Shown here in pieces: positions 4,683 through 43,452 of a DNA stretch of 64,000 bases; within the stretch, counting starts at the first letter, position 1; the number at the start of each line of letters is the position of its first letter. The DNA lies in NCBI RefSeq assembly GCF_013122565.1, contig NZ_CP053258.1. The stretch is one strand, 5' to 3'. The stretch is from Escherichia coli. GTDB lineage: Bacteria > Pseudomonadota > Gammaproteobacteria > Enterobacterales > Enterobacteriaceae. The translations under genes were made by a program, and so were the position numbers. The notes under the pieces are model-generated. The model was not told where the DNA came from, made no database searches, and saw only the letters and a program-made list of their open reading frames with translations.

Positions 4683-4698
4683 ATATCATTTCCTGTCT

Positions 4699-6315: not shown

Positions 6316-6488
6316 CTAGCTGTTCAGATGGTGAATTTAACTACACCTTCTGGTTATCACCGTATTCAAGTGCCGCGATGCAACTACTGGGAAACTACAC
6401 TCATTCTCTTATTATTTTTAGAAATTTTCATCTATTAAATAATACACATGACCGATATTATTTAACCCTGCTGGGTATAACTGAAAAA

Positions 6489-7340: not shown

Positions 7341-7359
7341 ATATTTCCCCTTAAATAAA

Positions 7360-8820
7360 TCAACACTCCCCCTTCACTCTAAAATCTTGATCTGAAACAT
7401 TTCCTGTATTTGGTGGTCGTTTTTCATTACTGGTTACTCCTCTTCCTCCATTTTTAGCTATTTTCATTGCCTCTAAATTATTTAGCCATTGTTTACTAAT
7501 TCCAGCATATTTATCAAAATTCAACGAATCCAACATTGCCTGAGTTAACTTTCCACTTCGGGCATGTTGCAACATTCTCTGATATAGATTTTTTGTTTGA
7601 CCTGCATACATTTTACCCGCACCTTCATCAAAAAACTCATAAATTGCTTGCCCTTTATATTTTGCAGTAACATCTCTTATTTGTTCTAAAAAATCACTAG
7701 CGAGTCTTACTAATCCCCAAGGATCAATCCACCTCAGCGGATTCGGCGCATACCTGTAAAGATTCAGCCCACCCCGGATCGAAATCGGGTCCTGGCTTAT
7801 GAACCTTCCGCACTCCGGCGCATAATACCTGAACAGATTGTAATGCAGCCCCGTCTCTTCATCATAATACTGCCCCGGCAGCCGCAGCGGTTGCTCAAAG
7901 TACGCCCCGCTGTTGCTGATGTCGCCCCGATTTTCTCCAAATCCCGCCTGGTAGCCCGCCCACACCAGCCTCCCGTCCGGCGCGGTCACCTCCTGTACCG
8001 TGCCCGTCAGGTCCGTGTGGTAATACCAGATTTTTTGACTCTCTCCGCGCCCGGTGATGGCCGCCACTGGCGTGTACGGCTGTTCCGCGTCGTACAGGTA
8101 TGTCCGCTTTCCCTGCCACGTTGTCTCCTGCAACAGCCGGAACCCTTCCCACACAAACGTCGTCCGCCGCTGTTCCCTCTGGACCGTATGGCGGCCATAT
8201 GTCGCCTTGCTGATGCGCCTGCCCAGCGCATCATACTGATACCGCGTCTCGCTGTTGCTGCTGATGACCCGCGTTAACTGGCCCTGCGCGTTCCACTCCA
8301 GTTGCTGGTCCCTGCGCTCTGTCAGTTCGCCCCATTCGTTATAGCGGTAACGGTCACGCCCGTAGCCCGGCAGGCGGTTATCCATCACCGCGCTCTGATA
8401 CTCGTCCGTCAGCAGATTGCCCGCTTTGTCGTAATAATAATGGTCATGGTCGTACATCTGCCCCGTGCGGCTGGTCAGCCAGCCGCTGCGGTCATACGCA
8501 AAGCGCACCGTGTCCGCCTGCATGTGGTGCAGCCGTTCCCCTTCTTTCGTCGGGGTGAGCGTCACTTCCGTTATCTGGTCAAGACGGTTGTAGCTGAAGG
8601 TCCGTGTACTGTGCTGCGTGTCACTGCGCAACAGGCGGCCCAGCGCATCACGCTCCTGCCGCTCATTACGCCCCCCGCCTTCTGTACCCTGCGTCTGGAT
8701 GATGACCGGATACCCGCCCGCATTCAGCGCCAAATGGCTGAGAGAAGCGGGATTTGAGATCGGCACGGGCGTTACCGTGAAGATCTCGGAGGGATGTCTG
8801 ATCCTGCTTGCGGATAACAA
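7360..8820 (-). CDS. orphan Rhs C-terminal fragment 2: core repeat, DPWGL, GIY-YIG-like tip
   Basis: About 1.1 kb rhs core homology; tip has AIYEFFDEGAGKMYAGQTKNLYQRMLQH; the first ~30 codons are antisense to the SymE-like remnant. Confidence 0.7.
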   Translation of the reverse strand: MLSASRIRHPSEIFTVTPVPISNPASLSHLALNAGGYPVIIQTQGTEGGGRNERQERDALGRLLRSDTQHSTRTFSYNRLDQITEVTLTPTKEGERLHHMQADTVRFAYDRSGWLTSRTGQMYDHDHYYYDKAGNLLTDEYQSAVMDNRLPGYGRDRYRYNEWGELTERRDQQLEWNAQGQLTRVISSNSETRYQYDALGRRISKATYGRHTVQREQRRTTFVWEGFRLLQETTWQGKRTYLYDAEQPYTPVAAITGRGESQKIWYYHTDLTGTVQEVTAPDGRLVWAGYQAGFGENRGDISNSGAYFEQPLRLPGQYYDEETGLHYNLFRYYAPECGRFISQDPISIRGGLNLYRYAPNPLRWIDPWGLVRLASDFLEQIRDVTAKYKGQAIYEFFDEGAGKMYAGQTKNLYQRMLQHARSGKLTQAMLDSLNFDKYAGISKQWLNNLEAMKIAKNGGRGVTSNEKRPPNTGNVSDQDFRVKGEC

Positions 8821-8914
8821 CGAAGTACAGGAACTGCGCAGGGAGCTTTATCAGGTTAAACAGGCAGTTAAGGGGATGCGGGACGGGATGTTTAGTGTGC
8901 TGAACGAAAGTTAA
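8729..8914 (+). pseudogene. SymE-like 3' remnant (last ~62 codons) fused to an rhs-fragment boundary
   Basis: Near-identical to 2497..2683; homology to the first copy starts abruptly at the junction with rhs-core sequence (~8728). Confidence 0.45.
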
Positions 8915-8922
8915 ATAATAAA

Positions 8923-8955
8923 AAAGCCGGGAAGGTAAATAAGCTTCCCGGCTTT
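8923..8955. terminator. bidirectional intrinsic terminator hairpin
   Basis: 12 bp perfect stem aaagccgggaag / cttcccggcttt with 9 nt loop, flanked by A-run and T-run. Confidence 0.6.
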
Positions 8956-8975
8956 CCACAACAATTTTAACTTAA

Positions 8976-9464
8976 TTAATCATAAGCATCGCCGTAATTT
9001 TCATATTTCCAATAAATATATTTACCACCTGAGCTATATAATTTATGCAATAATTCTGTAAAAGTCATTGCAATAATTGGACAACTACCTACAACGCCAT
9101 GTATCTCATAATTGCTATCATAACAGCGTCCATTTCTTTCTGTAGAAAAATCAATGGATAAATAATCATTATTATCGGTCCTGCAAATTAAGTACCATGA
9201 AGATGATATATCATCCTCACATGGCTCACCAACTATAAATTTATTTGCCTGTAATATTTCATTATTTTTCAAAATAGTGAAGGAGATTTCCTGCTCTTCA
9301 GAGCAAAACAATTTTATTCCATTACATATTTTGTAAAAACGAACAACATCATCAGGATATTTTAAATAATCAGATGGTAATAAAGGCAAATTACCATCTG
9401 GTGGAATAACTTCACATCTGTTATCATTTTTTATCAAGTCAAGTAATTCATCAATGCCATTCAT
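8976..9464 (-). CDS. putative immunity protein (SUKH-like) for orphan rhs module 1
   Basis: 162 aa AT-rich ORF downstream of the orphan tip; LLPSDYLKY...FYKICNG pattern. Confidence 0.5.
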   Translation of the reverse strand: MNGIDELLDLIKNDNRCEVIPPDGNLPLLPSDYLKYPDDVVRFYKICNGIKLFCSEEQEISFTILKNNEILQANKFIVGEPCEDDISSSWYLICRTDNNDYLSIDFSTERNGRCYDSNYEIHGVVGSCPIIAMTFTELLHKLYSSGGKYIYWKYENYGDAYD

Positions 9465-9473
9465 ATTACCACC

Positions 9474-11312
9474 TTAAAAAATAACAGTATCAAACTTCCC
9501 AGAGTATATAAACTGGTTCAATGCCCGGTAATATGCTTCCCTACTGGCAACAGGAACATTTGCGGCATCAAACATTCGTTCAGTAAGATCTTTCATTTCT
9601 CTGCTACTTACTGTTGTCCAATCCACTTTCCCACCAACTCTTCTTCCGGTTTTCTGCTCTAACCAATCTCTATATACTTTTTTTGTTGCAGCATGATTAG
9701 CCTCGGATAATGCAATTGTTGGTGACTTTGAAGGATATTTCCCTCCATAAGATGGCACATTCTTAGACATCCAAATATCAAGCACACCATGATGGTTTTC
9801 TAAAGAGGAATTAATTGGTCGATAAGGAACAACATCAAACTCTTTAACTTCACCGCACTTAAGTCCAAGGGGATCTATCCACCCCAGCGGATTCGGCGCA
9901 TAAGCATACTGGTTCAGCCCACCCGCCAGCCCTATCGGGTCCTGGCTTACGAACCGCCCGCACTCCGGCGCATAATACCTGAACAGATTATAGTGCAGCC
10001 CCGTCTCTTCATCATAATACTGCCCCGGCAGCCGCAGCGGCTGTTCAAAGTACGCCCCGCTGTTGCTGATATCGCCCCGGTTTTCGCCAAATCCCGCCTG
10101 GTAGCCCGCCCACACCAGCGTCCCGTCCGCCGCGGTCACCTCCTGTACCGTGCCCGTCAGGTCCGTGTGGTAATACCAGATTTTTTGACTCTCTCCGCGC
10201 CCCGTGATGGCGGCCACCGGCGTGTACGGCTGTTCCGCGTCGTACAGGTATGTCCGCTTTCCCTGCCACGTTGTCTCCTGCAACAGCCGGAACCCTTCCC
10301 ACACAAACGTTGTCCGGCTTCGTTCTCCCCGGTCCGTATGGCGGCCATATGTCGCCTTGCTGATGCGCCTGCCCAGCGCATCATACTGATACCGCGTCTC
10401 GCTGTTGCTGCTGATGACCCGCGTTAACTGGCCCTGCGCGTTCCACTCCAGCTGCTGGTCCCTGCGCTCTGTCAGTTCGCCCCATTCGTTATAGCGGTAG
10501 CGGTCACGCCCGTAGCCCGGCAGGCGGTTATCCATCACCGCTCCCTGATATTCATCCGTCAGCAGGTTGCCCGCTTTATCGTAATAATAATGGTCATGGT
10601 CATACATCTGCCCCGTGCGGCTGGTCAGCCAGCCGCTGCGGTCATAGCTGAACACCAGGCAACCGCGCAGTTTGTCATTGATGCCGCCGACTTCACCGTC
10701 TGCGTTCCAGATATAGTCCCGCGCTGTCACGCTGTCGCTGTGTGACGGGGGTGTGGCTGTCTGCTGTGGGTTCTGGCTGCCGCCTGGCAGGCTGCGCTGC
10801 CAGCTTAACCGGTTGTCGGCGTTGTAGCCGCTGAACGTCGCCAGTTTCCCCTGGGTGCGCATCACCTGACGGTGCAGACTGTCACGCTCATATTCACTGA
10901 CCGTGATACCGTCCAGTGCCGTCTGGAGCAGATGTCCGCTGCCGTAGTAAAGATGGCTGAGGTGCTGCCCGTTCGGTAACGTGATGTCGGTGGGATTGCC
11001 CAGCGCGTCACGCTGATATTTTATGCTGCCGTGCACGCTGTGCTCTGCCGTCAGCCACCCGCTGCGGTCATACGCAAAGCGCACCGTGTCCGCCTGCATG
11101 TGGTGCAGCCGTTCCCCTTCTTTCGTCGGGGTGAGCGTCACTTCCGTTATCTGGTCAAGACGGTTGTAGCTGAAGGTCCGTGTACTGTGCTGCGTGTCAC
11201 TGCGCAACAGGCGGCCCAGCGCATCACGCTCCTGTCGCTCATTACGCACCCCGCCTTCTGTACCCTGCGTCTGGATGATGACCGGATACCCGCCCGCATT
11301 CAGCACAAACAT
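9474..11312 (-). CDS. orphan Rhs C-terminal fragment 1: core repeat, DPLGL, unassigned toxin tip
   Basis: About 1.6 kb homologous to main rhs (to ~11476, where an in-frame stop precedes it); first ATG at 11312; tip ~130 aa with no recognizable motif. Confidence 0.7.
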   Translation of the reverse strand: MFVLNAGGYPVIIQTQGTEGGVRNERQERDALGRLLRSDTQHSTRTFSYNRLDQITEVTLTPTKEGERLHHMQADTVRFAYDRSGWLTAEHSVHGSIKYQRDALGNPTDITLPNGQHLSHLYYGSGHLLQTALDGITVSEYERDSLHRQVMRTQGKLATFSGYNADNRLSWQRSLPGGSQNPQQTATPPSHSDSVTARDYIWNADGEVGGINDKLRGCLVFSYDRSGWLTSRTGQMYDHDHYYYDKAGNLLTDEYQGAVMDNRLPGYGRDRYRYNEWGELTERRDQQLEWNAQGQLTRVISSNSETRYQYDALGRRISKATYGRHTDRGERSRTTFVWEGFRLLQETTWQGKRTYLYDAEQPYTPVAAITGRGESQKIWYYHTDLTGTVQEVTAADGTLVWAGYQAGFGENRGDISNSGAYFEQPLRLPGQYYDEETGLHYNLFRYYAPECGRFVSQDPIGLAGGLNQYAYAPNPLGWIDPLGLKCGEVKEFDVVPYRPINSSLENHHGVLDIWMSKNVPSYGGKYPSKSPTIALSEANHAATKKVYRDWLEQKTGRRVGGKVDWTTVSSREMKDLTERMFDAANVPVASREAYYRALNQFIYSGKFDTVIF

Positions 11313-11517
11313 CCGTATCAGACCGTCCGGGCGCTGTTCTCCCGTCAGCCGTCCGTCCGCATCGTGACTGAACCGGTAAAGCGCTCCGTTGCCGTTGCTC
11401 AGACTGGCAATCCATCCCTCCGCGGTATAATGCCAGCGCGTCTCCCGTTTCTCTTCATCCGTGTGGCACGCCAGTTAACATACGTCTACTGACAAAACCA
11501 TTAGTCCAAACAAAATC

Positions 11518-16474
<4,957 letters not shown>

Positions 16475-18735: not shown

Positions 18736-19122
18736 TTAAAATCTAGCCCCTGGTGGCCAAAAAATATAAGTAATAACTCTCCATTGCCCGTCTTTATAAT
18801 GAAACCAACATGTCAGATTCAAATCCCCCTGCAAATTCCAGAACATTTCCTTAATAGGAACATCTTGAAATTCAGGATCTGTTATGCGATAAGTTTGATT
18901 CAAGCCGATATAATACTCACCAACAAATTTATATCGTGGCCTCACGAACTCATGAGCAGGCGGCCCATATTTTTTCATAAAAAAGATGTCATTACTTCCA
19001 TCATGTATATCATTTTCTTCATAATATTTGGTGGATTGAGCAACTGCAGAAGGCTTGAAAACATTCACTGTAGTTATGTAAGTTATTGAAAGAAAAATCA
19101 CTATAATGCAGAAAAATTTCAT
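18736..19122 (-). CDS. putative secreted immunity protein for HExxH effector 1
   Basis: 128 aa with N-terminal signal peptide; paralog of 20819..21181; overlaps effector stop. Confidence 0.5.
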   Translation of the reverse strand: MKFFCIIVIFLSITYITTVNVFKPSAVAQSTKYYEENDIHDGSNDIFFMKKYGPPAHEFVRPRYKFVGEYYIGLNQTYRITDPEFQDVPIKEMFWNLQGDLNLTCWFHYKDGQWRVITYIFWPPGARF

Positions 19123-19820
19123 TTGGTTACATTCAATAAAGTAAATTTAGTTTCAGGCATTATGACATTCAACGTTATAGTTGCGTTTTTAAGGTATCGT
19201 TCCCGAAGCTCCATTCCCACATTCATCAACCCACTAATATCTCCAACATACGGAGACGAAGAATCATAATCATCATCTAAGTAACCAAGTACATGTCCGG
19301 CTTCATGAGGTATATTTACTTGCAACGTATTGTTACAGTTAATACATTTCGCTACTTTTTCCAGGTCCGCTGAATCAACATGAACCGTACTGTTTTTAAA
19401 ATCAACATATGTTCTTAAATCAGCACCAGGCAAAACCTTTGTTGCAATAACCAACCAGTCTTCATTCTGAGATGCAGAAATTATTCTTACATCAAAAGGC
19501 AAAGCTTTACCCTGAAATTTTTTAGCGAACTCAGATTCACCGGAAACAGAATAAGTTATTTTCCCATTCCATGCCTGCTGAACAGATAAATATATCGCTC
19601 GCATAAAAATAGCTTTTTCCCATATAGTCCAGTCATCTGTAACGGTATTATCCTTATACCACTCATACTTCCATCTTATCACAGCCGTAATCGAACCAGT
19701 ATTTTGATTTAATAAATACGTCCTCCTACCATCCTTATGTATAATGATATCGCCATCAATATTTGTTTTTTCATAGTATTCGGCCAGCAAACTATTCTCA
19801 TCATATTTAAGCTTGGTCAT
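19119..19820 (-). CDS. putative T6SS effector 1, HExxH zinc-metallopeptidase-like
   Basis: 233 aa, no signal peptide; HEAGHVLGYLDDDY motif; paralog of 21178..21984 (shared ALMNVGMELRERYL). Confidence 0.55.
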   Translation of the reverse strand: MTKLKYDENSLLAEYYEKTNIDGDIIIHKDGRRTYLLNQNTGSITAVIRWKYEWYKDNTVTDDWTIWEKAIFMRAIYLSVQQAWNGKITYSVSGESEFAKKFQGKALPFDVRIISASQNEDWLVIATKVLPGADLRTYVDFKNSTVHVDSADLEKVAKCINCNNTLQVNIPHEAGHVLGYLDDDYDSSSPYVGDISGLMNVGMELRERYLKNATITLNVIMPETKFTLLNVTK

Positions 19821-19879
19821 TTTACTCTCATTAAATAATAATTATTTGTATCGAAAATATTATTTTATATATTACGAGT

Positions 19880-19905
19880 ATTGCCCCTTCAGCCGCAGCG
19901 CATCC
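19880..19905. repeat. short remnant of the tagF 3' coding end
   Basis: cagccgcagcgcatccacataccg matches tagF 3' end at ~23275..23300. Confidence 0.5.
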
Positions 19906-20032
19906 ACATACCGTCCTTCACTGCAGGGCAAGATTACGAAAGCCCGCCCCCCGCAAGGACTGACGCGAGGTAGTTTCTGTCCATGGCTGCTTTTCTCATC
20001 TTACGTCTTAACCCTGCCTTGGTTTCGCCGTA

Positions 20033-20794
20033 CTACACCTGCCAGGCGCGGGGGGGATAATTTTCCACCAGCCGTTTTTCCACCGGAAAGGAATATTCAT
20101 CCAGTACTTCATCGAGAATATCCACCACGGTTTTATTCTGGAATGCTTTGTAGTCGCTGGTATGGGTCAGCAGCTTCAGCCATGGCTCAATGCGTAATTC
20201 ATACGTTACCGAACGGCCCTCATGGCCGACCACCCTCGCCGCCGTCACCAGCCCGCTGATATACCGTTTTCCGCCACCGTCCAGTTCAATGTTGACGCAC
20301 AGGTCTTTGCCCACCATGGGCTGAAGCGGCAGGTTAGCAGCGGGGGAAACGTACCCCAGGTTCAGGGCGTCCGGCGTTTTAAGCTGTACTGTGTAGGAAA
20401 ACAGATTCCCAAGCCCTTCCGAACCATTCATGCCTGCAAACAAAAGCAGCTGCGGCGGCACCGCACTACCACTTACTGTGACGTTATGCGCCCCCGGTCC
20501 ACCGGCAGCAATCGACGCCGCCGCATCCTGAACTGCACCAGCCATATCCGATATCCCTGCTGCGGCGGCTGCGGCTTGCGCAGCAGCTACTGCGGCTTTA
20601 ACCAGACCTGACGGTTCCGGCAACGCACCAAACAGGTCCGCCGCTGCCTGTTCTACCATCTGCTCGGCTGCATCAGCGACATCGGTTGCGGCTGAACCAG
20701 GGCTTATACCACCACTTTCGCCAGCTATTGGTGGTGTGGTGATGACGGGTCCACCGTTTCCAACTGGTTTATTACCCGTAGATACAAAACTCAT
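20033..20794 (-). pseudogene. truncated vgrG 5' duplicate (first ~253 codons with identical RBS and start)
   Basis: Near-identical to 17950..18711 including the Ala-rich extension; homology ends ~20025. Confidence 0.7.
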
Positions 20795-20818
20795 GATATT
20801 TGCTCCTTTAATACCGGA

Positions 20819-21181
20819 TTAAAATTTGGATCCTGGCGGCCAATAAACTCGGGATATAACTATCCATTTACCATTTTTATAATGAAGCCAACATGTTAAA
20901 TTTAGATCTTTATTAACATTCCAAAACATCTCCTTAATAGGAACATCTTTAAATTCAGGATTATTTGAAGGGTAAGTCCGTTCTATGCCACCATAATAAA
21001 TACCTACAAAATCATGCCTTGGGTTTATAAAATAATGTTCAGGAGAACCATATTTTCTCACTAGTGAATCTTCATCATCCCCCCACTGAACATCTTTGTT
21101 ATGCATCTCACTGGCAAAAATATCTAGAGTTACAAGCAATATCAATAACGTAAAAAATAGAGCGATTTTCTTCTGGATCAT
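20819..21181 (-). CDS. putative secreted immunity protein for HExxH effector 2
   Basis: 120 aa with signal peptide; C-terminal region paralogous to 18736..19122. Confidence 0.5.
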   Translation of the reverse strand: MIQKKIALFFTLLILLVTLDIFASEMHNKDVQWGDDEDSLVRKYGSPEHYFINPRHDFVGIYYGGIERTYPSNNPEFKDVPIKEMFWNVNKDLNLTCWLHYKNGKWIVISRVYWPPGSKF

Positions 21182-21984
21182 TTTATTACACTCGCAACAG
21201 AAAACGTAGTTAAGGGATATACTAAATTCAAGTCAATACAGACACCTTCCAGGTAGCGTTCCCGAAGTTCCATCCCAACATTCATTAACGCGGCAGTATC
21301 TATTTTATATTTAGACACAGGCTTACCAAACTTATCAAGTTCATATTCATCCTCCAGATAACGAATCATATGTCCAATTTCATGAACTATATTTACCTGA
21401 TAAAAACCACATATTGACTGATTCTCTGGAGCACATTTTTCTGATAACGAAGTATCTTTAAAATAAAAATGAGCAAACCGATTTTTCCAGTTAACATAAG
21501 GCCTGCCATCATCATTACCAGGAACGGTTCTTAATACGTCTACATTCCAGTGTTCTTTTTGATGGACCGGAATCATATTTATGCTGAAAGGCAATCTTTT
21601 ACTCTTGAATTTCTCAGCAAAATCAGAGTCCCCTGAGACAGATAAAAATATCTTATCATTCCATCCATAACAGATTGCAGAAAATGATTCATATATAAAA
21701 CTAACTTCATCCAGGTATGTCCAGTTATCTCCTACATTGTTCTGATTCACCCAGTTAAATTTCCATCTCATTAATAATGCAATGTCGCCTGTATCACTAT
21801 TCAGGATATATTCGCCATGTTCTGTATTCATCCTGAGACACTTCCCATCTTCTACGGTGTCAGGGCAAAACTTATGCATGAGTTTAATAAAGAATTCATG
21901 CGATAGATTTATTTTACTCTCTCCAACAACACCATCTACATGTGTTGTGAGCGAACCAGATTTATTCCCTGAAGAAGAACTCAT
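21178..21984 (-). CDS. putative T6SS effector 2, HExxH zinc-metallopeptidase-like
   Basis: 268 aa; HEIGHMIRYLEDEY motif; paralog of 19119..19820. Confidence 0.55.
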   Translation of the reverse strand: MSSSSGNKSGSLTTHVDGVVGESKINLSHEFFIKLMHKFCPDTVEDGKCLRMNTEHGEYILNSDTGDIALLMRWKFNWVNQNNVGDNWTYLDEVSFIYESFSAICYGWNDKIFLSVSGDSDFAEKFKSKRLPFSINMIPVHQKEHWNVDVLRTVPGNDDGRPYVNWKNRFAHFYFKDTSLSEKCAPENQSICGFYQVNIVHEIGHMIRYLEDEYELDKFGKPVSKYKIDTAALMNVGMELRERYLEGVCIDLNLVYPLTTFSVASVIK

Positions 21985-22311: not shown

Positions 22312-22773
22312 CTACTCATCCGTACAACCCAGCCCCCGGCGCTGAACCACTTCACTGGCAAACGTTGCTCCGGTTTTTTTCATTATTCCCTGCTGGATTT
22401 TTTGTAACTCCGGGTATACAACCCGCTCACATTCATTTATTTCCCATATGTCACCCGTCTTAGGACTAACCGAAAACAACCCTAAATAGTCTGTTGCTCC
22501 AGCAGTCGGCGTATCATAGCCAAGACTAAAATCATAATATCCGGGATGAGGCGCATTGCCCTGACCATCCTGTAAATCTCCATCAATAAAAATCCCTTCC
22601 AGCGATAAATTATACTTTTGGTGCCTGAGTACAATAATAAGCAGTTTTTCCGCCTGTGCTTTCGTCATCCCTTCGCGGTTTATATCTGATAAATTAAATT
22701 CAGACGTATTCCCCTGAACGTAGCAAACCGCAGAGGCAAGAAGAAAAAAAACAAATATTATTTTACGGGGCAC
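22312..22773 (-). CDS. putative secreted immunity protein (Tgi-like)
   Basis: 153 aa with signal peptide; immediately downstream of and overlapping the glucosaminidase-like gene. Confidence 0.5.
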   Translation of the reverse strand: MPRKIIFVFFLLASAVCYVQGNTSEFNLSDINREGMTKAQAEKLLIIVLRHQKYNLSLEGIFIDGDLQDGQGNAPHPGYYDFSLGYDTPTAGATDYLGLFSVSPKTGDIWEINECERVVYPELQKIQQGIMKKTGATFASEVVQRRGLGCTDE

Positions 22774-23228
22774 GCCATTCTCCTTCCGACCATAATAATA
22801 ATGTCAGCAGTTTTTTTGGCATAATTATCTGTTCCGCCTGTGCTACTATCTCCAGAATTAAATCCGGCCTTTACCAGAGCATCACAGAAAGCCAAAGCAT
22901 CCTTTATGTCTCTGGCTGCATTACCATATTTTATTGCAAAAGATCGTGCACAGATTGAAAAAGACGGAAAAGTAGCCACCCGGGTTTTCTTGTTACCGTG
23001 CGGACGGATTTCGCCTGACTGAAATGATGCAGGGGCATGCAGGGAGAAATAGTTGTTATATTCCCTGGCAATACGGCCTGTACCATACTGGCTCTCCGCC
23101 GCGGCAAGCCCCAGAATATTTTCCACAGGAACATTAAGTTGTTTAGCGATTAATTCACATTCTTTCAGATGCTGCTGAACAAACCTTACTGCATTAACAT
23201 CATTACAGGCTTTGTCATAAGACCCCAT
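22758..23228 (-). CDS. putative peptidoglycan glycoside-hydrolase effector (FlgJ/GH73 glucosaminidase-like, Tge-like)
   Basis: 156 aa, no signal peptide; ILGLAAAESQYG and NNYFSL resemble the FlgJ glucosaminidase motifs. Confidence 0.55.
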   Translation of the reverse strand: MGSYDKACNDVNAVRFVQQHLKECELIAKQLNVPVENILGLAAAESQYGTGRIAREYNNYFSLHAPASFQSGEIRPHGNKKTRVATFPSFSICARSFAIKYGNAARDIKDALAFCDALVKAGFNSGDSSTGGTDNYAKKTADIIIMVGRRMACPVK

Positions 23229-27000: not shown

Positions 27001-27892
27001 CCGCCACGTTCAGCGTCAGGATCACGCCGTTGAGCGGTGCGCCGGGGCGGTGTTTACGCAGCAGTCCCAGAAACCCGTGCCACTCCCCGGCGTTGCGCTG
27101 GGTCGCGCTGATTTCGCCACCGTCATCGTGACGGGCATAGCGCCCGGCGGTGTCAATAAGCACTGCTTCGTTGGTAAACCACCAGTCGCAATGCAGCGTT
27201 CCGCCGCCCGGCACGGTGAGGATATGCGCGGTTTGCTCCATCTGCTCCGCCAGCGGAAACTGCAATCCGGTGTTGAGCAGTGCTGTGGTTTTACCGTCGC
27301 CGGGGCTACCGATAACCATGAACCAAGGCAGTTCGTACAGAAAACGTTTTCCTTCCAGTACGTTACGCCAGCCCGGCAGGTCTACGCGCAGCTGTTTCAG
27401 TTGCCGAATAGCGCGAGTGACAATATGGCTGACGGTGCGTAAGTCGGCTTTAATTTCCCCGGCCACCGGTACGTCTTCCCCGCGCGGATGCAGGAAACGG
27501 CGCAGCAGTTGTTCGTCCAGACGCAGCGCCCGCCACAGCCGGTACAGGCCATACAGCGCATAAGACAGAAGGATCAGGCCGATAAGCGTCAGACGCAGCC
27601 ACAGCGGCGCAAATGGATGAACATCACCGAAAGCCAGCAACGGTGAGACAAAGCCGATAACCAGGCACAGAACCGTAACGCCAATGATGCTCATAGACCA
27701 GTTAACCAGCCACAGTGCGAGGAACATCAGTAACAGAACGATGGTGACTAACCGACTTCCCACGGACGCGAGTGGATGCAGGGTGTCAAACGCGACCAGC
27801 GGCCCAATAAACCAGACCAGCAACGCCAGCATTACCAGGCCAACAATGGCCAGCGCGCGGCGGGAAAACAGCATACTGAGAAATTTTTGCAT
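24026..27892 (-). CDS. tssM: T6SS membrane-complex protein TssM (IcmF)
   Basis: 1288 aa; N-terminal transmembrane helices, Walker A GSPGDGKTT, large periplasmic domain. Confidence 0.9.
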   Translation of the reverse strand: MQKFLSMLFSRRALAIVGLVMLALLVWFIGPLVAFDTLHPLASVGSRLVTIVLLLMFLALWLVNWSMSIIGVTVLCLVIGFVSPLLAFGDVHPFAPLWLRLTLIGLILLSYALYGLYRLWRALRLDEQLLRRFLHPRGEDVPVAGEIKADLRTVSHIVTRAIRQLKQLRVDLPGWRNVLEGKRFLYELPWFMVIGSPGDGKTTALLNTGLQFPLAEQMEQTAHILTVPGGGTLHCDWWFTNEAVLIDTAGRYARHDDGGEISATQRNAGEWHGFLGLLRKHRPGAPLNGVILTLNVADLTAQSPAERLAACAALRARLAELRETLGIRFPVYLVVTKMDLLPGFTEYFHGLTSHLRAQVWGFTLPYSRRRHASDPQSLHALCSQELANLTLRLDQGLDTRLQEEYDLKSRQRLYRFPREFAALGAPLLEAIEQIFLDSKFDATQLNNTLRGVFFTSAAQAQADAVADKTGIWQRFVRAIKGKADSPSHTLPDGNRSYFLHDLLTQFIFREAHLVEPNLQWAWRYRLLRTGGHLLVLALAFWLWQGMQGSQQGNSGYLNEIASRTTQLDGDVKAYTGKPAMQPVPALLNQARALSAWPGLDPDSPPLAWRYGLYSVPPVMESVASLYDRLLDQLLLPPLVKRMEYVLSDAIARQDSKAAYDALHVYLLLNLDKDHEDKYNAAEIHAWVLNDLDNRDSVAEFGGRAAVLEHIDALFDGSRVVHSPWEKDEGLIRQARAFLDGHTSTERIYTRALASMESEAPQEFSLVRAVGADAGTVFVRTDGAPLDRGVPGIFTREGYRELFDKRLSEFVAAASADDAWVMGRENAQKKTTDIVMSQLPGQELPVTREVRRLYLAEYARRWQDFLASIHSINSAGEDGSPGLAYDLQVLRTLASPDSPLMRLSKAVVEQTTLVPPLDAQARQKQMAQRAQDRLSGNVGKAGQTAKLLQDIHPEERLEKSLVDDRFAALREVVSGRTDSGQTGGAPQLNSLLTMLNEYYTQLTIADSALAASTLPGRISAADKLQLEAAKLPAPLKNILLDLTQQGTRKINAGTGEVLNAQMEAVIGDECRDAIDGRYPFTDSPQEVSADDFNHIFASGGVLDAFWTKQLAPLADTASNPWRYKPTEGNMTLQGPDLTPFQEAKQIRSVFFNGEGGKKFSWAMQVRVVDMDPAITELVIDIDGQVLRYAHGPVRPLKVNWPGPRNGSMAEITASPRIRQDTSTLLTNGPWALFHLLDAGNAQETAVRGTQQVEYSFDGRRVVLEITAGRDFDPVNRGLLQRFACPERAL

Positions 27893-28179
27893 TATTGTTC
27901 AGAACTCCATGCGATAATCAGTAATAGCAAAATGCCGCAAGCTGAAAAAATCCTTCCAGTACGGGCTACTGAAAGAAAATAAAGAGCAATCTGAACAATT
28001 ATCAAAATAAAATAAATCAACATTTTGATTATTTCTCTGTTCCCATTTCCCTGAGGCAACGTTGTCATTGAAGGATCCATATCCTGCATCCATTGATACT
28101 CATTCCCGGAAAAAAGCATGATGATGATCAGACCCATAATGAATAACAACCATCCTGATATCTGAATTATTCTTCTCAC
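27892..28179 (-). CDS. small polytopic membrane protein, unknown function
   Basis: 95 aa with about three hydrophobic helices; between the SLT-like gene and tssM. Confidence 0.4.
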   Translation of the reverse strand: MRRIIQISGWLLFIMGLIIIMLFSGNEYQWMQDMDPSMTTLPQGNGNREIIKMLIYFILIIVQIALYFLSVARTGRIFSACGILLLLIIAWSSEQ

Positions 28180-28187
28180 GAAGACTC

Positions 28188-28871
28188 CTAATGGGCGATG
28201 AGTAAATTAGAGAAATGCAACCAGTTGTTGACAATAAAATTGCCATAGCTGGTATCTTCCTTTATTTTCTCCAGAGTAAGCGACATACCCCGGTTATAAC
28301 GGGCACCAATAATTCTTATCTGCTCTTTCGTCAGGTGTGGTAAGGAGGACTGAAATTCATCTCTTTCAGCTAATTTATAAATATGTCTGGCCACAAGTTG
28401 AATATTAAAAATATCATGCTGGAGGCAATTTGCCAGTTCACGCAATTGAGAGGTATCCATTTTTGACTCATCAAGCCCAAGCGTTCTGGCTGCGGTTCGC
28501 AATTGCATACTCACTGCACCAAAAGATGTTTTTTCTGGTCTCGAAGTTATTGTGATATGTTCATCAATCCACTCAGGCCCACTCCAGTCAATAGTCCGAG
28601 CATCAAATGCCAGCATATCTACAATACTGGGATCCCCCCCGACTTCTATCCAACACACACCTGCCAGTAAAGGTGCTGGCAAATTATATGTATTGGCAGC
28701 CGACGTTATCAGAAGATGGTTATGTTTTACCCAGCCATCTTTGAAATAACGCCCAAACGGTACACCACCGCCCCATTTTTTTGGCGCTAATTTCCAGAAA
28801 AGAAATTCGGTCACGCCCCATACCGGTGAATGATTCGATGCATTGCAGTCCAGATTATTCATTTTTCTCAC
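28188..28871 (-). CDS. lytic-transglycosylase (SLT)-like protein, T6SS-associated
   Basis: 227 aa, no signal peptide; LAGVCWIEVGGDP and FGAVSMQLRTAARTLGLD resemble the SLT Glu and GLMQ motifs. Confidence 0.45.
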   Translation of the reverse strand: MRKMNNLDCNASNHSPVWGVTEFLFWKLAPKKWGGGVPFGRYFKDGWVKHNHLLITSAANTYNLPAPLLAGVCWIEVGGDPSIVDMLAFDARTIDWSGPEWIDEHITITSRPEKTSFGAVSMQLRTAARTLGLDESKMDTSQLRELANCLQHDIFNIQLVARHIYKLAERDEFQSSLPHLTKEQIRIIGARYNRGMSLTLEKIKEDTSYGNFIVNNWLHFSNLLIAH

Positions 28872-30184
28872 TCCACCACCAGAATTTCCACCCGACGGTT
28901 CTGCGCCCGTCCGGTTTTAGTGCTGTTATCGGCCACCGGTACGGTATCTCCTTTCCCGACGACCCGAATCCGGCTGACCGGAACACCACCGGACGTCAGC
29001 AGTGAAGCCACTTCCGTCGCCCGTTTTTCCGACAACACCTGGTTGGAGGGGAATTCAGCGGAGTGGATCGGCTGACTGTCGGTGTGTCCGGTCACCGTCA
29101 CCGCGCCGCCCACACGCGCAATCTCTCGCGCGGCCTTATCAATCACCGGGCTTAGCGCATCATTCACGGTTTTCTGCCCTGGTATAAACATCGTATCGCC
29201 ACGAAAGATTACACGGCTGTGATGGTCATCTTCCTCCACCGTCAGCAGGCCACGGGCGATTTCGTTCGCCAGCAGGATTTTCAGCCGCAGTTTATGCACT
29301 GGAACGGGTGGCGGCGGTAGATTTTTACCAATGGCGTCGATACGCTGTTGTACGGTTTCGGTAGCGAGGTTCATCCGGTGGCTGTAAAGGCCAAACAGCG
29401 TCAGCATCACCAGCAGAGCGATTCCGGCGCTCAGCCAGACCGGCACCCGGCGCATCCGCCGCATTCGCCCACTGACGGCACCGGCAAAACCCGGCGAGAG
29501 CATCGGCGTGATTGGATCGCGACGCTGGACCAGTTGAGTCAGCAGTTGCTGACGGATATCGTCCAGTTGCTTACGCCCGTCAGGCCGTACACTGTAGCGG
29601 CCTTCAAAACCCAGCCCCAGAATGTGGTAGATGATCTCCAGTACATCGTTGTGCTCCTGGAAGCTTGCGGCCAGACGCCCAATTATCTGAAACAGCTTGA
29701 TGCCGCCTTCACTTTCGCCATGAAAAGTGACCAGCAGGCTTTTTCCAGCCCAGACACCGCGCCGTCCCCAGGTGGTGTTGTTGGCGGCTTCGTCCAGCGA
29801 AGTGCATAGGCAATAACGCACAGCCAGCACATGTTCGCGGCGAAGGTTTGCTTGATCGCATAACGTCTGATATCGACGAACTTCACGCTCCAGTAGGGCG
29901 CGATAATGTTCGACAAAACCAGGGGATAGTTCACGGGGCATTTGCGCCAGCGCGCATAACAGAGGGCTGGCCGCCGCCAGGAGAGGATTCACAGCACCAG
30001 TGATCTCAGCCAAACGGAGCTTCAAATCTGGCCCGTCTTCAACCACCACCTTTATATCTTCCCTGCGAAGGCTGTCCTGGATGAGCGTATCGTAACCTTC
30101 ATTATCAGGCGACCTTGTTCCCTTCATTGAAGTCTGTAATGGCAGAGTATTCACCGCAGGTTGCGTCAGAATATCGTCGGTCAT
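28868..30184 (-). CDS. tssL: TssL (DotU) with C-terminal OmpA-like peptidoglycan-binding extension
   Basis: 438 aa; central transmembrane helix; C-terminus ...NRRVEILVVE typical of OmpA/MotB domains. Confidence 0.85.
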   Translation of the reverse strand: MTDDILTQPAVNTLPLQTSMKGTRSPDNEGYDTLIQDSLRREDIKVVVEDGPDLKLRLAEITGAVNPLLAAASPLLCALAQMPRELSPGFVEHYRALLEREVRRYQTLCDQANLRREHVLAVRYCLCTSLDEAANNTTWGRRGVWAGKSLLVTFHGESEGGIKLFQIIGRLAASFQEHNDVLEIIYHILGLGFEGRYSVRPDGRKQLDDIRQQLLTQLVQRRDPITPMLSPGFAGAVSGRMRRMRRVPVWLSAGIALLVMLTLFGLYSHRMNLATETVQQRIDAIGKNLPPPPVPVHKLRLKILLANEIARGLLTVEEDDHHSRVIFRGDTMFIPGQKTVNDALSPVIDKAAREIARVGGAVTVTGHTDSQPIHSAEFPSNQVLSEKRATEVASLLTSGGVPVSRIRVVGKGDTVPVADNSTKTGRAQNRRVEILVVE

Positions 30185-32128: not shown

Positions 32129-32614
32129 TTAAATTTCTTTATTGGCCTTGAAGTCGTAGCCTGCGGTGATGGTGCCGCCGCTGCCACCTTGCTGGTTCTG
32201 CACCACGTATTCCTGCTTCACGGTGCTGAAAGAGAGTTCGACCATTTCACGGGAGGCAATCTCCCCTTCCTTGCTGCCACTGGGAGATACAACAGCCACA
32301 ATAAGGTCAGTGAAGGTATATTTGAGATATTCCAGCGGATTGCCGCCTGCTTTACGCATGGTCAGCACAGCTTTCGGAATGTGTTTGCCGGAGGCGCAGT
32401 ATTTGAACAGGTTAGGACTGGCACGATCGATATAGTGGTCAAAGTCCAGGTTGGTCACGGAGACTTTACCGGATCCCAGGCCACTGCCCGCGTGCATGGT
32501 GGACTCCTGGTGAATATTCCAGCGCCAGCTCAGCACCTCAATTTCATTTTTATGTTTGTCATCCATTGACTCGCCGTCAATGCCGTCAATTTTCAGAAAA
32601 ATGTCATAAGCCAT
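32129..32614 (-). CDS. hcp: Hcp tube protein (TssD)
   Basis: 161 aa from the second ATG (RBS spacing favors it); MAYDIFLKIDGIDGES, typical Hcp. Confidence 0.9.
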   Translation of the reverse strand: MAYDIFLKIDGIDGESMDDKHKNEIEVLSWRWNIHQESTMHAGSGLGSGKVSVTNLDFDHYIDRASPNLFKYCASGKHIPKAVLTMRKAGGNPLEYLKYTFTDLIVAVVSPSGSKEGEIASREMVELSFSTVKQEYVVQNQQGGSGGTITAGYDFKANKEI

Positions 32615-32831
32615 TTTCATTTCCTTATTAAGAATTACTTAAAATAATCTCTGGTTTATCTTCGCATCTGAATTCAGGTAAACCATAGCCGTACAGAACC
32701 TCCTCTCCTTAATTTAAGAAGAACAGAAGGCTCTATATTTTTCAGAACTTAAGTACCAGACAGAAAATCATTCACGAAATAAATGTTTATCAATTATATA
32801 TAGTTAACTGATAACATATTCTACTGGACTT

Positions 32832-33287
32832 TCATTCACATATTAAAGATACGGGTTTCTCCCTTGGTGGTTCATCGAAATAAAGAGTCTTACAGGAATG
32901 AGTATTTACAGGTACTGGCTGAGATAACCAGACCAGTCCGTAGCTATAAATACAGGAAAACCAGTATCTGTCGCTCTCTTTCGCTGTCGCGCCTTCTGTA
33001 TTCCATATCAACCATGTTTCCTGTTTTATTTTTTTCATCTCTGGCTTCTGATCGCCAAAATTTTCCGGTTTATCCTGTGTGACACTAATATGCGTTAACC
33101 ACTGACGAGGCTCCTGCCGTGGGGAAACTCTCCATTGCGGCTGGACAAATGATTTCAGAACCGCGGTGTAAGGCTCCGTTTCAACAAAAACAGGACAAGT
33201 AACTTCCCATGCCGACACATTTTGTGCATAAAACAAGGCAACACCAGAAAGAAGCAATACAGGAAAGCGCATCATCGTACCTTCCAT
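32832..33287 (-). CDS. putative secreted immunity protein (Tai-like)
   Basis: 151 aa with signal peptide, directly downstream of the amidase-like gene. Confidence 0.5.
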   Translation of the reverse strand: MEGTMMRFPVLLLSGVALFYAQNVSAWEVTCPVFVETEPYTAVLKSFVQPQWRVSPRQEPRQWLTHISVTQDKPENFGDQKPEMKKIKQETWLIWNTEGATAKESDRYWFSCIYSYGLVWLSQPVPVNTHSCKTLYFDEPPREKPVSLICE

Positions 33288-33670
33288 TATTCAATTACAT
33301 AAAATGCTTCAGCATTACTGCTGGCGCTGGGATACGAACCGTCAGAGTTTGCTCCGCCTTTCGGTCTGAGTTGATGTTTTTCGATTCTGATCTGCGTTCT
33401 CCACTGATCCATAACCCAGATCCCTCGTTTATCCTGCCCCAGATAGAATGCAGCATGATTACCTGAACTCCTGCCAGGCCATCGCCCATTAAAAAAAGTG
33501 GCAATAGCGGTACCTTTTGGAATGGTGGTGTCCCCCCACACTTTCTTACCCGCACGCCATGTTGCTGTGGAGCCAAGATGTGCATACCTTTTAACCAGAG
33601 TTACACACTCACCATCCCCCACTAATGGCTGCCCCTGTAATAAATCCACTGATTCATAAACTCGCGACAT
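33287..33670 (-). CDS. putative Cys/His papain-fold peptidoglycan amidase effector (Tae-like)
   Basis: 127 aa; candidate catalytic Cys (GECVTLVKRY) and His (NHAAFY) about 60 residues apart; sits between tssC and hcp where SPI-6-type islands carry tae/tai. Confidence 0.5.
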   Translation of the reverse strand: MSRVYESVDLLQGQPLVGDGECVTLVKRYAHLGSTATWRAGKKVWGDTTIPKGTAIATFFNGRWPGRSSGNHAAFYLGQDKRGIWVMDQWRTQIRIEKHQLRPKGGANSDGSYPSASSNAEAFYVIE

Positions 33671-41568: not shown

Positions 41569-43452
41569 ATGGATCCACGGCTACTGGAATACTACAACCG
41601 CGAACTGAGCTATCTGCGGGAAACGGGAGCCGAATTTGCCGCCCGTCATCCCAAAGTCGCCGCCCGGCTGGGCATGCAGGGAACGGATATTGCCGATCCG
41701 TATGTGGAGCGGATGGTCGAAGCCTTCAGCTTCCTGACCGCCCGCACGCAGCTAAAAATTGACGCTGAATTCCCTCGTTTCACCCAGCGCCTGCTGGAAG
41801 TGGTCAGCCCCAATTACGTCACACCCACGCCCTCAATGAGCGTGGCGCAGTTGCATCCCGATACGGAAGAAGGCGATCTGGCAAAAGGATTTACCGTCCC
41901 GCGCGACACGGCCTTTTTCTCCGCCATTCCGGAAGGCGAAAGCACTGCCTGCCAGTTTCGCAGCAGCCAGGATGTAACGCTGTGGCCGCTCGCCATCGAA
42001 GAGGCGCGACTGACCGCCGCGCCGCCGGATATGCCTGCCCTGCACCGCTACCTGCCGGCCAACATTCACGTCGCCGGGGCGCTGCGTATTACCCTGCGCA
42101 CCTTTGGTGAACTAACGTTCAGTCAGCTTGCCGGACTGGACAGGCTGCCGTTTTATCTCTGCGGCGAGGAGCGTACGGCCTCACACCTGTTCGAACTTCT
42201 ACATACCAGCGCCATCGCGACCCTGGCTGGCATTCCGGGACATTTTGACGGCGCGTTGGATGTGAATCTGCAACAGCCCGTTATGTACGAAGGCCTGGAG
42301 CCGGATCAGGGGCTGCTGCCGCTGGCGTGGAACGTGTTTCACGGTCATAACCTGCTGCATGAATATTTTGCCTGTCCGGAACGCTTCTATTTTTTCACCC
42401 CGACAGGCCTGTCTGCCGGATTACAGAAAATTGACGGTGGCGTGGCGGAGATTGTTATCCTGCTGAACCGCCTGCCGCCGGACTGGCTGATCCACCAGAC
42501 AAATACGGCACAGTTCAGCCTGTTCTGTACCCCGGTTATCAACCTGTTTCCCCGCGTCACCGCCCGGATCGATGTCACGCACAGCACGACGGAACAGCAT
42601 CTGGTGGTGGACAGAACCCATCCGCTGGATTATGAGGTGTTCTCGGTCCAGGAAGTGGAAGGGCTGGAAACCGACACCACACGGAAGATGGCCTTTCGCC
42701 CGCTCTACCACACCCGCAATAACGATGAAGGCAATCACGGGCGTTATTTTTCCCTGCGCCGGGAGCCGCGCCGCTTATCAGAAAACGCCCGCCGTTACGG
42801 TACCCGTACTCCCTATACGGGATCAGAAGTGTTCCTGTCGCTGGTTGACCAGTATGAAGCGCCGTACCCGGAAAATCTGCGCCACATCACCATCACGGCC
42901 ATGATCACTAACCGCGATCTGCCCTGTCTTATTGCCCGCAATGGCCGGGACGATCTAACCGTGGATGCGGCCATCCCGGTGGCGGGCGTAGGGCTTATCC
43001 GCCCGCCACGCTCGCCGCAGCCCCCGCTGGCTGAACGTGAGATGGCATGGCGGTTGATCCGCCAGTTATCTTTTAATTATCTGCCGCTGGCCGATCTGGA
43101 TCACCGTACCGGCGGCCAGGCGTTGCGAGATCTGCTGAACCTGTTTATTCCTGCTCATGACAGTCCGCAATCGCGCCAGGTGCGCAGCCTGATTGGTTGT
43201 AAAACGACCCCGGTCACCCGCCGTCTGCCCGGTTCCGGACTACTGGTCTATGGGCGTGGCGTCAGTTGTGAACTGACGGTGGATGAAGAAGGTTTTTCCG
43301 GCATCAGTCCGTATCTGTTCGGCCTGGTGCTGGAACACTATATCGCCCGCCATGTTTCCATTAATACCTTCTCGCAGATGACGCTGCACAGCATGCAGCG
43401 TGGCAAAATTATGACCTGGCCTGTCAGGGCGGGACAGCGGGGAAGCGTATGA
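41569..43452 (+). CDS. tssF: T6SS baseplate protein TssF
   Basis: 627 aa; N-terminus MDPRLLEYYNRELSYLRETGAEFAARHPKVAARLG typical of TssF. Confidence 0.9.
   Translation: MDPRLLEYYNRELSYLRETGAEFAARHPKVAARLGMQGTDIADPYVERMVEAFSFLTARTQLKIDAEFPRFTQRLLEVVSPNYVTPTPSMSVAQLHPDTEEGDLAKGFTVPRDTAFFSAIPEGESTACQFRSSQDVTLWPLAIEEARLTAAPPDMPALHRYLPANIHVAGALRITLRTFGELTFSQLAGLDRLPFYLCGEERTASHLFELLHTSAIATLAGIPGHFDGALDVNLQQPVMYEGLEPDQGLLPLAWNVFHGHNLLHEYFACPERFYFFTPTGLSAGLQKIDGGVAEIVILLNRLPPDWLIHQTNTAQFSLFCTPVINLFPRVTARIDVTHSTTEQHLVVDRTHPLDYEVFSVQEVEGLETDTTRKMAFRPLYHTRNNDEGNHGRYFSLRREPRRLSENARRYGTRTPYTGSEVFLSLVDQYEAPYPENLRHITITAMITNRDLPCLIARNGRDDLTVDAAIPVAGVGLIRPPRSPQPPLAEREMAWRLIRQLSFNYLPLADLDHRTGGQALRDLLNLFIPAHDSPQSRQVRSLIGCKTTPVTRRLPGSGLLVYGRGVSCELTVDEEGFSGISPYLFGLVLEHYIARHVSINTFSQMTLHSMQRGKIMTWPVRAGQRGSV

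Follow-up and report, generated by a model that had tools for sequence, protein, structure and literature searches.

The genes between tssL and tssM

The DNA analysed here, which we call the window, is a 64,000-nucleotide segment of an Escherichia coli chromosome (RefSeq assembly GCF_013122565.1, contig NZ_CP053258.1), 1.6 kb of which recurs at 99.9% identity in many RefSeq genomes. It contains a complete type VI secretion system (T6SS) island that resembles that of Salmonella pathogenicity island 6 (SPI-6), adjoins tRNA-Asp, and encodes TssA, B, C, E, F, G, H, J, K, L and M, Hcp (32129-32620), VgrG, PAAR-Rhs, TagF and TagK. Our subject is a pair of small genes within this island, placed between tssL and tssM, that we describe as a candidate effector—a predicted peptidoglycan-cleaving toxin—and its candidate immunity protein. 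The pair and its neighbours are as follows:

28868 to 30184, minus strand: tssL, in the long form with an OmpA-like peptidoglycan-binding domain (NCBIfam PRK08126, 650 bits; TIGR03349; TIGR03350)
28188 to 28862, minus strand: candidate effector gene, 224 amino acids (aa) from the ATG at 28862; a predicted toxin of lysozyme/SLT fold that cleaves peptidoglycan glycan, without signal peptide
27892 to 28179, minus strand: candidate immunity gene; a 95-aa predicted inner-membrane protein with three transmembrane (TM) helices
24026 to 27892, minus strand: tssM, the 3' neighbour (NCBIfam TIGR03348, 1058 bits)

An earlier note, made from the letters of the sequence, had described two open reading frames (ORFs) of 95 and 227 aa here and had named the flanking genes. 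The ORFs are indeed present, at 27892-28179 and 28188-28871 on the minus strand, and the NCBIfam models bear out the identity of both neighbours. Both ORFs are real genes rather than chance ORFs, since the larger protein has numerous homologues. The longest form of the larger ORF begins at GTG 28871 and encodes 227 aa, and residues of the enzyme are numbered throughout according to this form. The gene probably starts at ATG 28862, however, to give a protein of 224 aa, because this start fits both the RefSeq entry (WP_032283000.1) and the N-termini of homologues. The ATG follows the tssL stop by 5 nt and is preceded, 9 nt upstream, by GGAG. The ORF ends in TAG; next comes an AGGAG, located 6 nt upstream of GTG 28179, the first codon of the smaller ORF, and the TAA of the latter overlaps the tssM ATG (TAATG). 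RefSeq annotates both genes as ‘hypothetical protein’, of 224 and 81 aa. The 81-aa version starts at ATG 28137, which cuts away most of the first TM helix (TM1), and this start appears to be too far downstream; GTG 28179 is the better choice, given the spacing of the AGGAG and the occurrence of the 95-aa form in homologues. The cassette has a GC content of 36-43%, versus 57-61% in tssL and tssM.

The larger protein

A word-seeded search recovers 316 homologues of the larger protein at E <= 1e-3, mostly ~220 aa in length and 50-60% identical, in genera such as Rhodanobacter, Burkholderia, Yersinia, Cronobacter, Paracidovorax, Methylobacter and Massilia; an exhaustive profile search recovers 448 cluster representatives. 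The family as a whole takes in E. coli, Salmonella, Yersinia, Cronobacter, the Pseudomonas syringae group, the Burkholderia cepacia complex, Paracidovorax, and Snodgrassella from the bee gut. The conserved residues described below come from two alignments, one of 40 close family sequences and the other of 42 long fusion proteins, and are compared with those of Tse3 (Tge1), the effector of the Pseudomonas aeruginosa H1-T6SS. The earlier note had recognized two SLT-like motifs, WIEVGGDP (residues 74-81) and FGAVSMQLRTAARTLGLD (residues 117-134), and both fall within the most conserved parts of the 40-sequence alignment. It missed a third, GARYNRG, at residues 189-195. In the window the motifs lie as follows:

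28629 to 28652, minus strand: SLT motif 1, W74-I-E76-V-G-G-D-P81; E76 is invariant in both alignments
28644 to 28646, minus strand: codon of E76, the predicted catalytic acid; V72 stands four residues before it (compare Ile246 and Glu250 of Tse3)
28503 to 28529, minus strand: SLT motif 2, T115-S-F-G-x-V-S-x-Q123; T115, S116, F117, G118, V120, S121 and Q123 are invariant in the close family
28287 to 28307, minus strand: SLT motif 3, G189-A-R-Y192-N-R-G195; G189, R191, Y192, N193, R194 and G195 are invariant in the close family

The first invariant block of the close family reads C73-W-x-E76-V-x-G-D-P, and includes G79, D80 and P81. Motif 2, of which the Ser and the Gln are invariant among the fusion proteins, is the counterpart of GLMQ in SLT and of Gly276 and Gln280 in Tse3. 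Motif 3 is the counterpart of AYNxG in SLT and of Tyr376 in Tse3. Five residues are described as common to the fold in the Tse3 structure paper—Ile246, Glu250, Gly276, Gln280 and Tyr376 (PMC3792639)—and their counterparts in the window enzyme are V72, E76, G118, Q123 and Y192. Among these, the catalytic set (E76, Q123 and Y192) is invariant in the 40 relatives, and the Glu and Gln are invariant in the 42 fusions as well. The overlay of E76 on Glu250 is a predicted equivalence, drawn from the motifs.

The predicted structure of the enzyme has an all-alpha, lysozyme-like fold with a substrate groove. Its top five Foldseek matches are Tse3 throughout. Structure comparison gives scores of 9.6 for P. 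aeruginosa Slt, 9.3 for MltE, 9.0 for MltF, 8.8 for MltC, 8.7 for Slt70 and 8.2 for g-type lysozyme, an order with which the Foldseek ranking agrees, and EtgA is likewise among the matches. Of the profile and structure search against lytic transglycosylases that the earlier note had proposed, then, the structural part is positive. The sequence part is not. The 227-aa protein has no match in Pfam even at E <= 10, the SLT model (PF01464) included, and none in NCBIfam or PADLOC. Against the sequences in the PDB, phmmer and hmmsearch with the family profile return chance matches only, with no SLT chain and no Tse3 chain at E <= 10. Alignment of the family to E. coli MltD by hhalign pairs motif 3 with AAYNSG, but at a non-significant probability of 0.6%. 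Weak matches to Pfam SLT occur in three of the 42 distant relatives, the best at E 8.8e-3. ‘SLT-like’ is right, then, for the predicted fold and the logic of the active site, in a protein that is outside the sequence families of Pfam SLT and of Tse3. The sequence would fit either a hydrolytic muramidase or a lytic transglycosylase.

As the earlier note had said, the larger protein lacks a signal peptide. Its N-terminus has no hydrophobic stretch (the maximum 19-residue Kyte-Doolittle mean is 1.17), and neither a signal peptide nor a lipobox is found in the 224-aa sequence. The candidate toxin is devoid of a Sec signal, therefore, while its lysozyme/SLT-like predicted fold implies a target outside the cytoplasm.

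Three cysteines of the enzyme, Cys9, Cys73 and Cys149 (codons 28845-28847, 28653-28655 and 28425-28427), vary little or not at all in the close family. Cys73 sits three residues before the catalytic Glu, and in the distant fusion proteins Ala occurs there instead. That the cysteines might form disulfides once the toxin arrives in the periplasm is pure speculation.

The small membrane protein

The 95-aa protein was said in the earlier note to be polytopic, and it has three hydrophobic segments, at approximately residues 7-24, 51-71 and 77-91. It matches DUF2645 weakly (E 0.016). A word-seeded search with it yields 32 matches, in E. coli and Salmonella only, but this narrow range is a limit of the search method. 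When the ORFs immediately 3' of each enzyme homologue are read instead, the predicted partner family is seen to be as widespread as the enzyme: just 3' of the enzyme gene, 43 of the 55 genome loci that lent themselves to analysis contain an ORF with predicted TM segments and a length of 79-115 aa (92-115 aa in most cases). Most of these ORFs have three hydrophobic segments, and they usually begin a few bases from the enzyme stop codon; 4-nt overlaps of the two genes are frequent. The arrangement recurs at three loci outside this set, taken from metagenome and genome records, in Rhodanobacter, Burkholderia and Yersinia.

When aligned, 49 partners share a basic N-terminus, TM1, a motif, an acidic loop, TM2, a short basic loop, and TM3. 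The consensus motif is (N/D)-(K/R)-Y-x-W-M-x-(E/D)-x-D-P, and in the window it is the following:

28072 to 28104, minus strand: juxtamembrane periplasmic motif N26-E-Y28-Q-W30-M31-Q-D-M-D35-P36, the predicted contact site for the effector

Y28 is conserved in 48 of the 49 partners, W30 in 37, M31 in 36, D35 in 37 and P36 in 33. On average, the N-terminus contains 2.0 Lys and Arg residues, loop 2 contains 2.1, and loop 1 contains 5.0 Asp and Glu residues. By the positive-inside rule, this distribution of charge predicts that the N-terminus is cytoplasmic and that the conserved loop 1, of ~28 residues, is periplasmic.

Partners from different loci are less alike than the enzymes are (22% versus 51% mean pairwise identity), so that the partner is the faster to evolve, and the divergence of the two is correlated (r 0.60, a value reached in none of 2000 Mantel permutations). 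The partner gene is tightly linked to the enzyme gene and in the same direction at the 43 loci given above, and also follows versions of the enzyme that are fused to PAAR and Rhs proteins, described later. Such constancy beside a toxin domain, across different delivery modules, is characteristic of the immunity genes of polymorphic toxins.

A swappable slot in the T6SS island

The pair stands exactly between two genes for the inner-membrane complex of the T6SS, and is translationally coupled to tssM. This position speaks for one of the two functions suggested in the earlier note, that of a dedicated assembly enzyme. On this view the enzyme would open the producer's own peptidoglycan for insertion of TssJLM, and the small protein would export, anchor or restrain it. 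The SLT-type predicted fold fits such a role, MltE and EtgA being among the structural matches, and the membrane partner could, in principle, tether the enzyme at the site of assembly. Specialized assembly transglycosylases are conserved with, or recruited by, the machines that they serve. MltE, used by the Sci-1 T6SS of enteroaggregative E. coli, and VirB1, EtgA and IpgF are SLT-fold enzymes tied to secretion machines in this way, VirB1 to type IV and EtgA to type III systems. These enzymes are Sec-exported to the periplasm of the producer, however, and to our knowledge all assembly transglycosylases carry a signal peptide or a lipobox. The window protein has neither, and so has no known route to the producer's periplasm.

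Nor is the pair conserved with the machinery. Among 5,426 complete E. coli genomes, 115 have this tssL variant. The cassette of enzyme and small protein is present in 98 of them, while in 15 the same junction holds a Tlde1-domain protein and a 147-aa gene, and the machinery of these 15 strains is 93-96% identical to that of the window. Tlde1 is an experimentally established SPI-6 effector, according to the work cited in PMC10469887. When the alleles are compared, homology is seen to break exactly at the tssL stop and to resume 57 nt within the 3' end of the small gene; strains with the Tlde1 cassette retain this 3' remnant 5' of tssM (27892-27948 of the window; 4764-4820 of the Tlde1 locus). 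The comparison suggests that one cassette displaced the other, and the surviving 57-nt remnant of the membrane-protein gene points to the Tlde1 cassette as the probable displacer. Judged from these alleles, the tssL-tssM junction is a swappable site for predicted cargo. E. coli E69 carries a degenerate copy of the enzyme gene (locus 10001-10972). This pseudogene is 77% identical, is frameshifted into pieces of 40 and 184 aa, and has lost the conserved residues G79 and G189 by substitution. The ORF for the membrane protein that follows it is undamaged, and a broken enzyme beside an intact partner is the pattern of decay expected after loss of a toxin.

A related T6SS cluster in Snodgrassella alvi has an extra ORF of 174 aa between tssL and tssM (4674-5198 of that locus), and the junction may serve as a cargo site in further genera.

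Genomic settings elsewhere, and fusions to delivery proteins

We surveyed the neighbourhoods of 58 homologous loci, taking one genome per species. In Salmonella enterica, a pair with 80% identity stands first in a series of known effector and immunity genes directed at the cell wall—Rap1a/Tae4, Glucosaminidase/T6SS_Tgi2PP, DUF2195 and a Tlde1-like gene—that ends at vgrG. In Snodgrassella alvi, the pair comes directly after tagF. In Pseudomonas caricapapayae, the order is hcp, effector gene, small gene; Hcp is also encoded within ~0.5 kb in three other Pseudomonas and in one Burkholderiaceae metagenome-assembled genome, and VgrG is nearby at two loci. Together with the Tlde1 allele, the Salmonella train and the Hcp and VgrG neighbours place the pair at variable cargo positions in or near T6SS genes. 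Most homologues, though, are found away from such genes: a T6SS or Rhs gene lies within 10 kb at just 10 of the 58 loci, as judged by tblastn with the E. coli core proteins, a procedure that under-detects distant T6SS genes and covers only these 10 kb of each genome. In Rhodanobacter, Burkholderia ambifaria and Yersinia pseudotuberculosis, the pair stands among unrelated housekeeping genes. Orphan two-gene modules are common for T6SS cargo effectors; for an assembly factor they make no sense.

The enzyme domain also occurs at the C-terminus of long relatives, of 300-1,088 aa. Within the N-terminal parts of the 42 fusions aligned here are eCIS_core/DUF4157 (nine of the 42; eCIS denotes extracellular contractile injection systems), PAAR (one), DUF4280 (one) and WXG100 (one). 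A Rhs-associated core precedes the domain in a relative, and the AlphaFold database holds further PAAR, RHS, WXG100 and eCIS proteins that contain it. Some relatives have OmpA-like and PG_binding_1 domains, which argues for peptidoglycan as the substrate. At one locus, vgrG is followed directly by the PAAR fusion and then by a three-helix ORF; the gene caller's version of this ORF is shortened, and the full ORF contains VNEYDGM. At another, the Rhs-core fusion is followed by a 96-aa three-helix ORF. From these architectures, the domain is a C-terminal tip of predicted polymorphic toxins, and the same toxin-immunity pair may be shared across T6SS, eCIS and type VII delivery systems.

Taken with what was said above of the junction, these settings tell against a dedicated assembly transglycosylase, and we regard that explanation as very improbable. 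Its slot holds Tlde1 and a partner in 15 genomes with the same machinery, and its gene is broken in E69; in Salmonella and Snodgrassella the pair is located elsewhere in the cluster, in three further genera it is surrounded by housekeeping genes, and it is found mostly at a distance from T6SS genes; and PAAR, Rhs, eCIS and WXG100 proteins bear the domain as a fused tip. The other function suggested in the earlier note, that of an effector-immunity pair, is strongly supported by this comparative genomics.

The scarcity of T6SS genes within 10 kb at most loci favours a third explanation, in which the pair has nothing to do with the T6SS. A signal-less enzyme for wall glycan beside a three-helix protein of ~95 aa, the size of a class I holin, recalls holin and endolysin, as in the S and R genes of phage lambda or ChiW and ChiX of Serratia; the lesion made by the three-helix protein would let the signal-less muramidase reach the wall, either to lyse the cell or to set other proteins free. 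The pair also has a strong match to PHROG 11932, a family without annotated function. But a tblastn search of 50,697 phage genomes found no homologue, and the loci that we examined hold chromosomal housekeeping or T6SS genes, with neither lysis cassettes nor secreted cargo among them. Holins typically end in a charged tail on the cytoplasmic side, which the small protein does not have at its C-terminus; its conservation lies in the periplasmic loop and not in the helices, and the enzyme gene comes first. The same partner, moreover, follows PAAR- and Rhs-fused versions of the enzyme, which are clearly delivered otherwise. A holin-like pair is, for these reasons, hardly to be expected here. A phage endolysin family was considered in addition, and was rejected; the phage collection contains no homologue, and the contexts are chromosomal.

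Relation to known enzymes and effectors

The known effectors that are functionally closest to the pair are those of the Tge class (Tse3/Tge1, Tge2 and Tge3). With Tse3/Tsi3 the window enzyme has no detectable sequence homology. Tse3 has 408 aa, with an N-terminal domain and a linker, whereas the window enzyme is a single domain of 224 aa, and motifs 1 and 2 are 47 residues apart in the latter and 30 in the former, an excess of ~17 residues. Tsi3 is a periplasmic beta-sandwich, while the window partner is a predicted three-helix protein of the inner membrane. The pair is not a member of the Tge1 family, then, by sequence homology of the enzyme or by its type of immunity protein.

Tge2/Tgi2, a glucosaminidase pair, belongs to the same functional class—T6SS effectors that are peptidoglycan glycoside hydrolases—and a Tge2-like pair is present both in the window (22312-23228) and beside the homologous pair in Salmonella. 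Tge2 matches Pfam Glucosaminidase and has an immunity family of its own in the periplasm, T6SS_Tgi2PP; the window protein matches neither. Tlde1/Tldi1 of Salmonella SPI-6 is, like the window pair, a two-gene cassette that targets peptidoglycan, and in E. coli it occupies the identical tssL-tssM slot. In fold and chemistry Tlde1 is unrelated, however, being YkuD-like, similar to L,D-transpeptidases, and active on the peptide stems.

Among enzymes that are not effectors, the family 1 lytic transglycosylases (Slt70, MltE, MltC and MltF; PF01464, GH23) serve housekeeping functions, bear either a Sec signal or a lipobox, and have no immunity partner. The window enzyme differs in having no export signal, in having a partner gene at most loci, and in giving no match to the Pfam SLT model. 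Nor does it belong with VirB1, EtgA and MltE, given its lack of a Sec signal or lipobox and its inconstancy beside the machinery (the Tlde1 swap and the E69 pseudogene), or with the holin-endolysin pairs of phages, since its contexts are chromosomal housekeeping or T6SS regions.

Two other proteins were considered as relatives and rejected: PseM/PA0990, a recent T6SS muramidase (PMC12494544), whose fold is novel and contains a beta-sheet core, and which carries a signal peptide; and the SleB-like T6EC3 (PMC11148199), which has a different fold from that of the window enzyme. A large catalogue of T6SS toxin tips (PMC11148199) includes a cluster, number 517, named ‘Transglycosylase SLT domain-containing protein’, and the enzyme domain may already have been catalogued there, in bulk.

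Proposed mode of action

We consider it highly probable that the two genes form a cargo effector-immunity module of the surrounding T6SS. The best reading of the pair is as a new family of effectors that cleave the glycan of peptidoglycan, accompanied by a membrane-embedded immunity protein whose polytopic character is unusual. The 224-aa protein, synthesized in the cytoplasm and devoid of a signal peptide, would have no access to peptidoglycan until the T6SS loaded it. It would travel within the Hcp tube—its size of ~25 kDa and the hcp-linked operons are consistent with this route—and be fired into the periplasm of neighbouring Gram-negative cells. There, Glu76, situated in a groove of the lysozyme/SLT type, would cleave the backbone of N-acetylmuramic acid and N-acetylglucosamine (MurNAc-GlcNAc) and so weaken the wall. 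Sister cells would be shielded by the 95-aa protein, whose acidic periplasmic loop, with the motif N-x-Y-x-W-M...D-P just outside TM1, would bind the toxin and block it. What the analysis itself supports are the predicted fold with its conserved motifs, the exchange of cargo at the tssL-tssM junction, the use of the domain as a toxin tip, the co-inheritance of the two genes and the predicted topology of the partner; secretion, toxicity in the periplasm, bond specificity and binding of the loop to the enzyme are steps that we infer.

As a model for such binding, the enzyme and the partner were joined by a 30-residue Gly-Ser linker and folded with AlphaFold as one chain, from a paired alignment. 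The predicted template modelling score (pTM) is 0.77 despite the disordered linker, and residues 81-120 of the enzyme, whose predicted local distance difference test (pLDDT) is 63-73 in the stand-alone model, rise to ~90 in the fused chain. The model is compatible with a defined enzyme-partner complex, but is suggestive only.

Several points weigh against this account. A fused chain is no true multimer prediction; it gives values of pLDDT and pTM only, and the stand-alone model was built from a different alignment. The assignment of the larger protein as an enzyme depends on a predicted fold and on the logic of the motifs, and sequence profiles do not reach SLT. T6SS or Rhs genes are near few of the homologues, as described. 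In the literature we found no experimental work on the family and no mention of its RefSeq accessions, and no relevant report on DUF2645, PHROG 11932 or the three-helix partner. Lastly, soluble glycosidases that act in the periplasm are not usually countered by a polytopic protein with a loop of ~28 residues; Tsi3 and Tgi2 are rich in beta structure and are either soluble or lipoproteins.

The unusual partner would be explained if the pair is an effector and its immunity protein, but the target is something other than the mature sacculus: lipid II, nascent undecaprenyl-linked strands at the outer face of the membrane, or another glycan. Immunity proteins embedded in the membrane are, as a rule, found with effectors whose site of action is the membrane, and here the conserved motif starts at the periplasmic end of TM1, which makes for a juxtamembrane loop. 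The colicin M-like effector and its DUF943 partner may exemplify this kind of immunity (PMC11148199). The ~17 residues that the enzyme has in excess of Tse3, between its motifs 1 and 2, could alter the shape of the groove. Nevertheless, the closest folds all belong to enzymes that act on polymeric peptidoglycan, and the OmpA-like and PG_binding_1 domains of some relatives are binders of mature peptidoglycan. A target other than the sacculus is, on balance, unlikely. We would entertain, tentatively, a further proposal: that the pair founds a family of glycan-cleaving effectors with minimal polytopic immunity, which acts at the membrane face on lipid-linked or nascent strands. If so, the ~28-residue loop with N-x-Y-x-W-M...D-P would be a new and very small inhibitor module for enzymes of SLT fold.

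Other features of the window

Several other parts of the window resemble effector loci. Between tssC and hcp, at 32832-33670 on the minus strand, a BPSL0067-family protein (127 aa) is followed by an STY0301-family protein (151 aa) with a hydrophobic N-terminus; in strain Res13-Lact-ER01-35, whose T6SS island is near-identical, Tae4/Tai4 occur at this position. It looks like another allelic slot for effector and immunity genes, occupied here by a little-studied pair. At 22312-23228 (minus strand), 3' of tagF, a gene for a 156-aa glucosaminidase-like protein with a weak match to FlgJ overlaps a 153-aa ORF. These are probably the genes of a Tge2/Tgi2 pair, as their equivalents in Salmonella are annotated Glucosaminidase and T6SS_Tgi2PP. 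The region 19119-21984 (minus strand), parts of which are 34-37% GC, contains a 253-aa N-terminal fragment of VgrG (20033-20794) between ORFs of 268 and 233 aa that match no family, and may be a remnant vgrG with unfamiliar cargo genes. At 4699-16010 (minus strand), the gene for a full PAAR-Rhs protein (1,379 aa) precedes three smaller ORFs (612, 486 and 538 aa) in which only YD repeats, the Rhs core and a C-terminal tip remain, the tip being different in each; the arrangement resembles an array of orphan Rhs toxin tips. ARAGORN calls a 94-nt tRNA-His at 43235-43328 on the plus strand, within the coding region of tssF, which is probably a false positive.

Significance

T6SS effectors that degrade peptidoglycan are a well-known kind, and the pair described here represents, overall, an uncharacterized family in a type of system that is already familiar, and has an atypical immunity protein; we regard it as a solid and testable lead. 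Although widespread, the enzyme family is unnamed in Pfam and NCBIfam, and ‘hypothetical’ in RefSeq. If our interpretation is true, it is a fourth sequence family of glycan-cleaving effectors, and its partner is a compact, membrane-anchored inhibitor of SLT-fold enzymes. The tssL-tssM junction would then be a hot spot for cargo in SPI-6-like clusters, and would add to the three variable regions described for the Salmonella T6SS (PMC10469887). The 95-aa gene and its orphan copies, finally, could be annotated as immunity determinants, of relevance to competition among strains in the gut.

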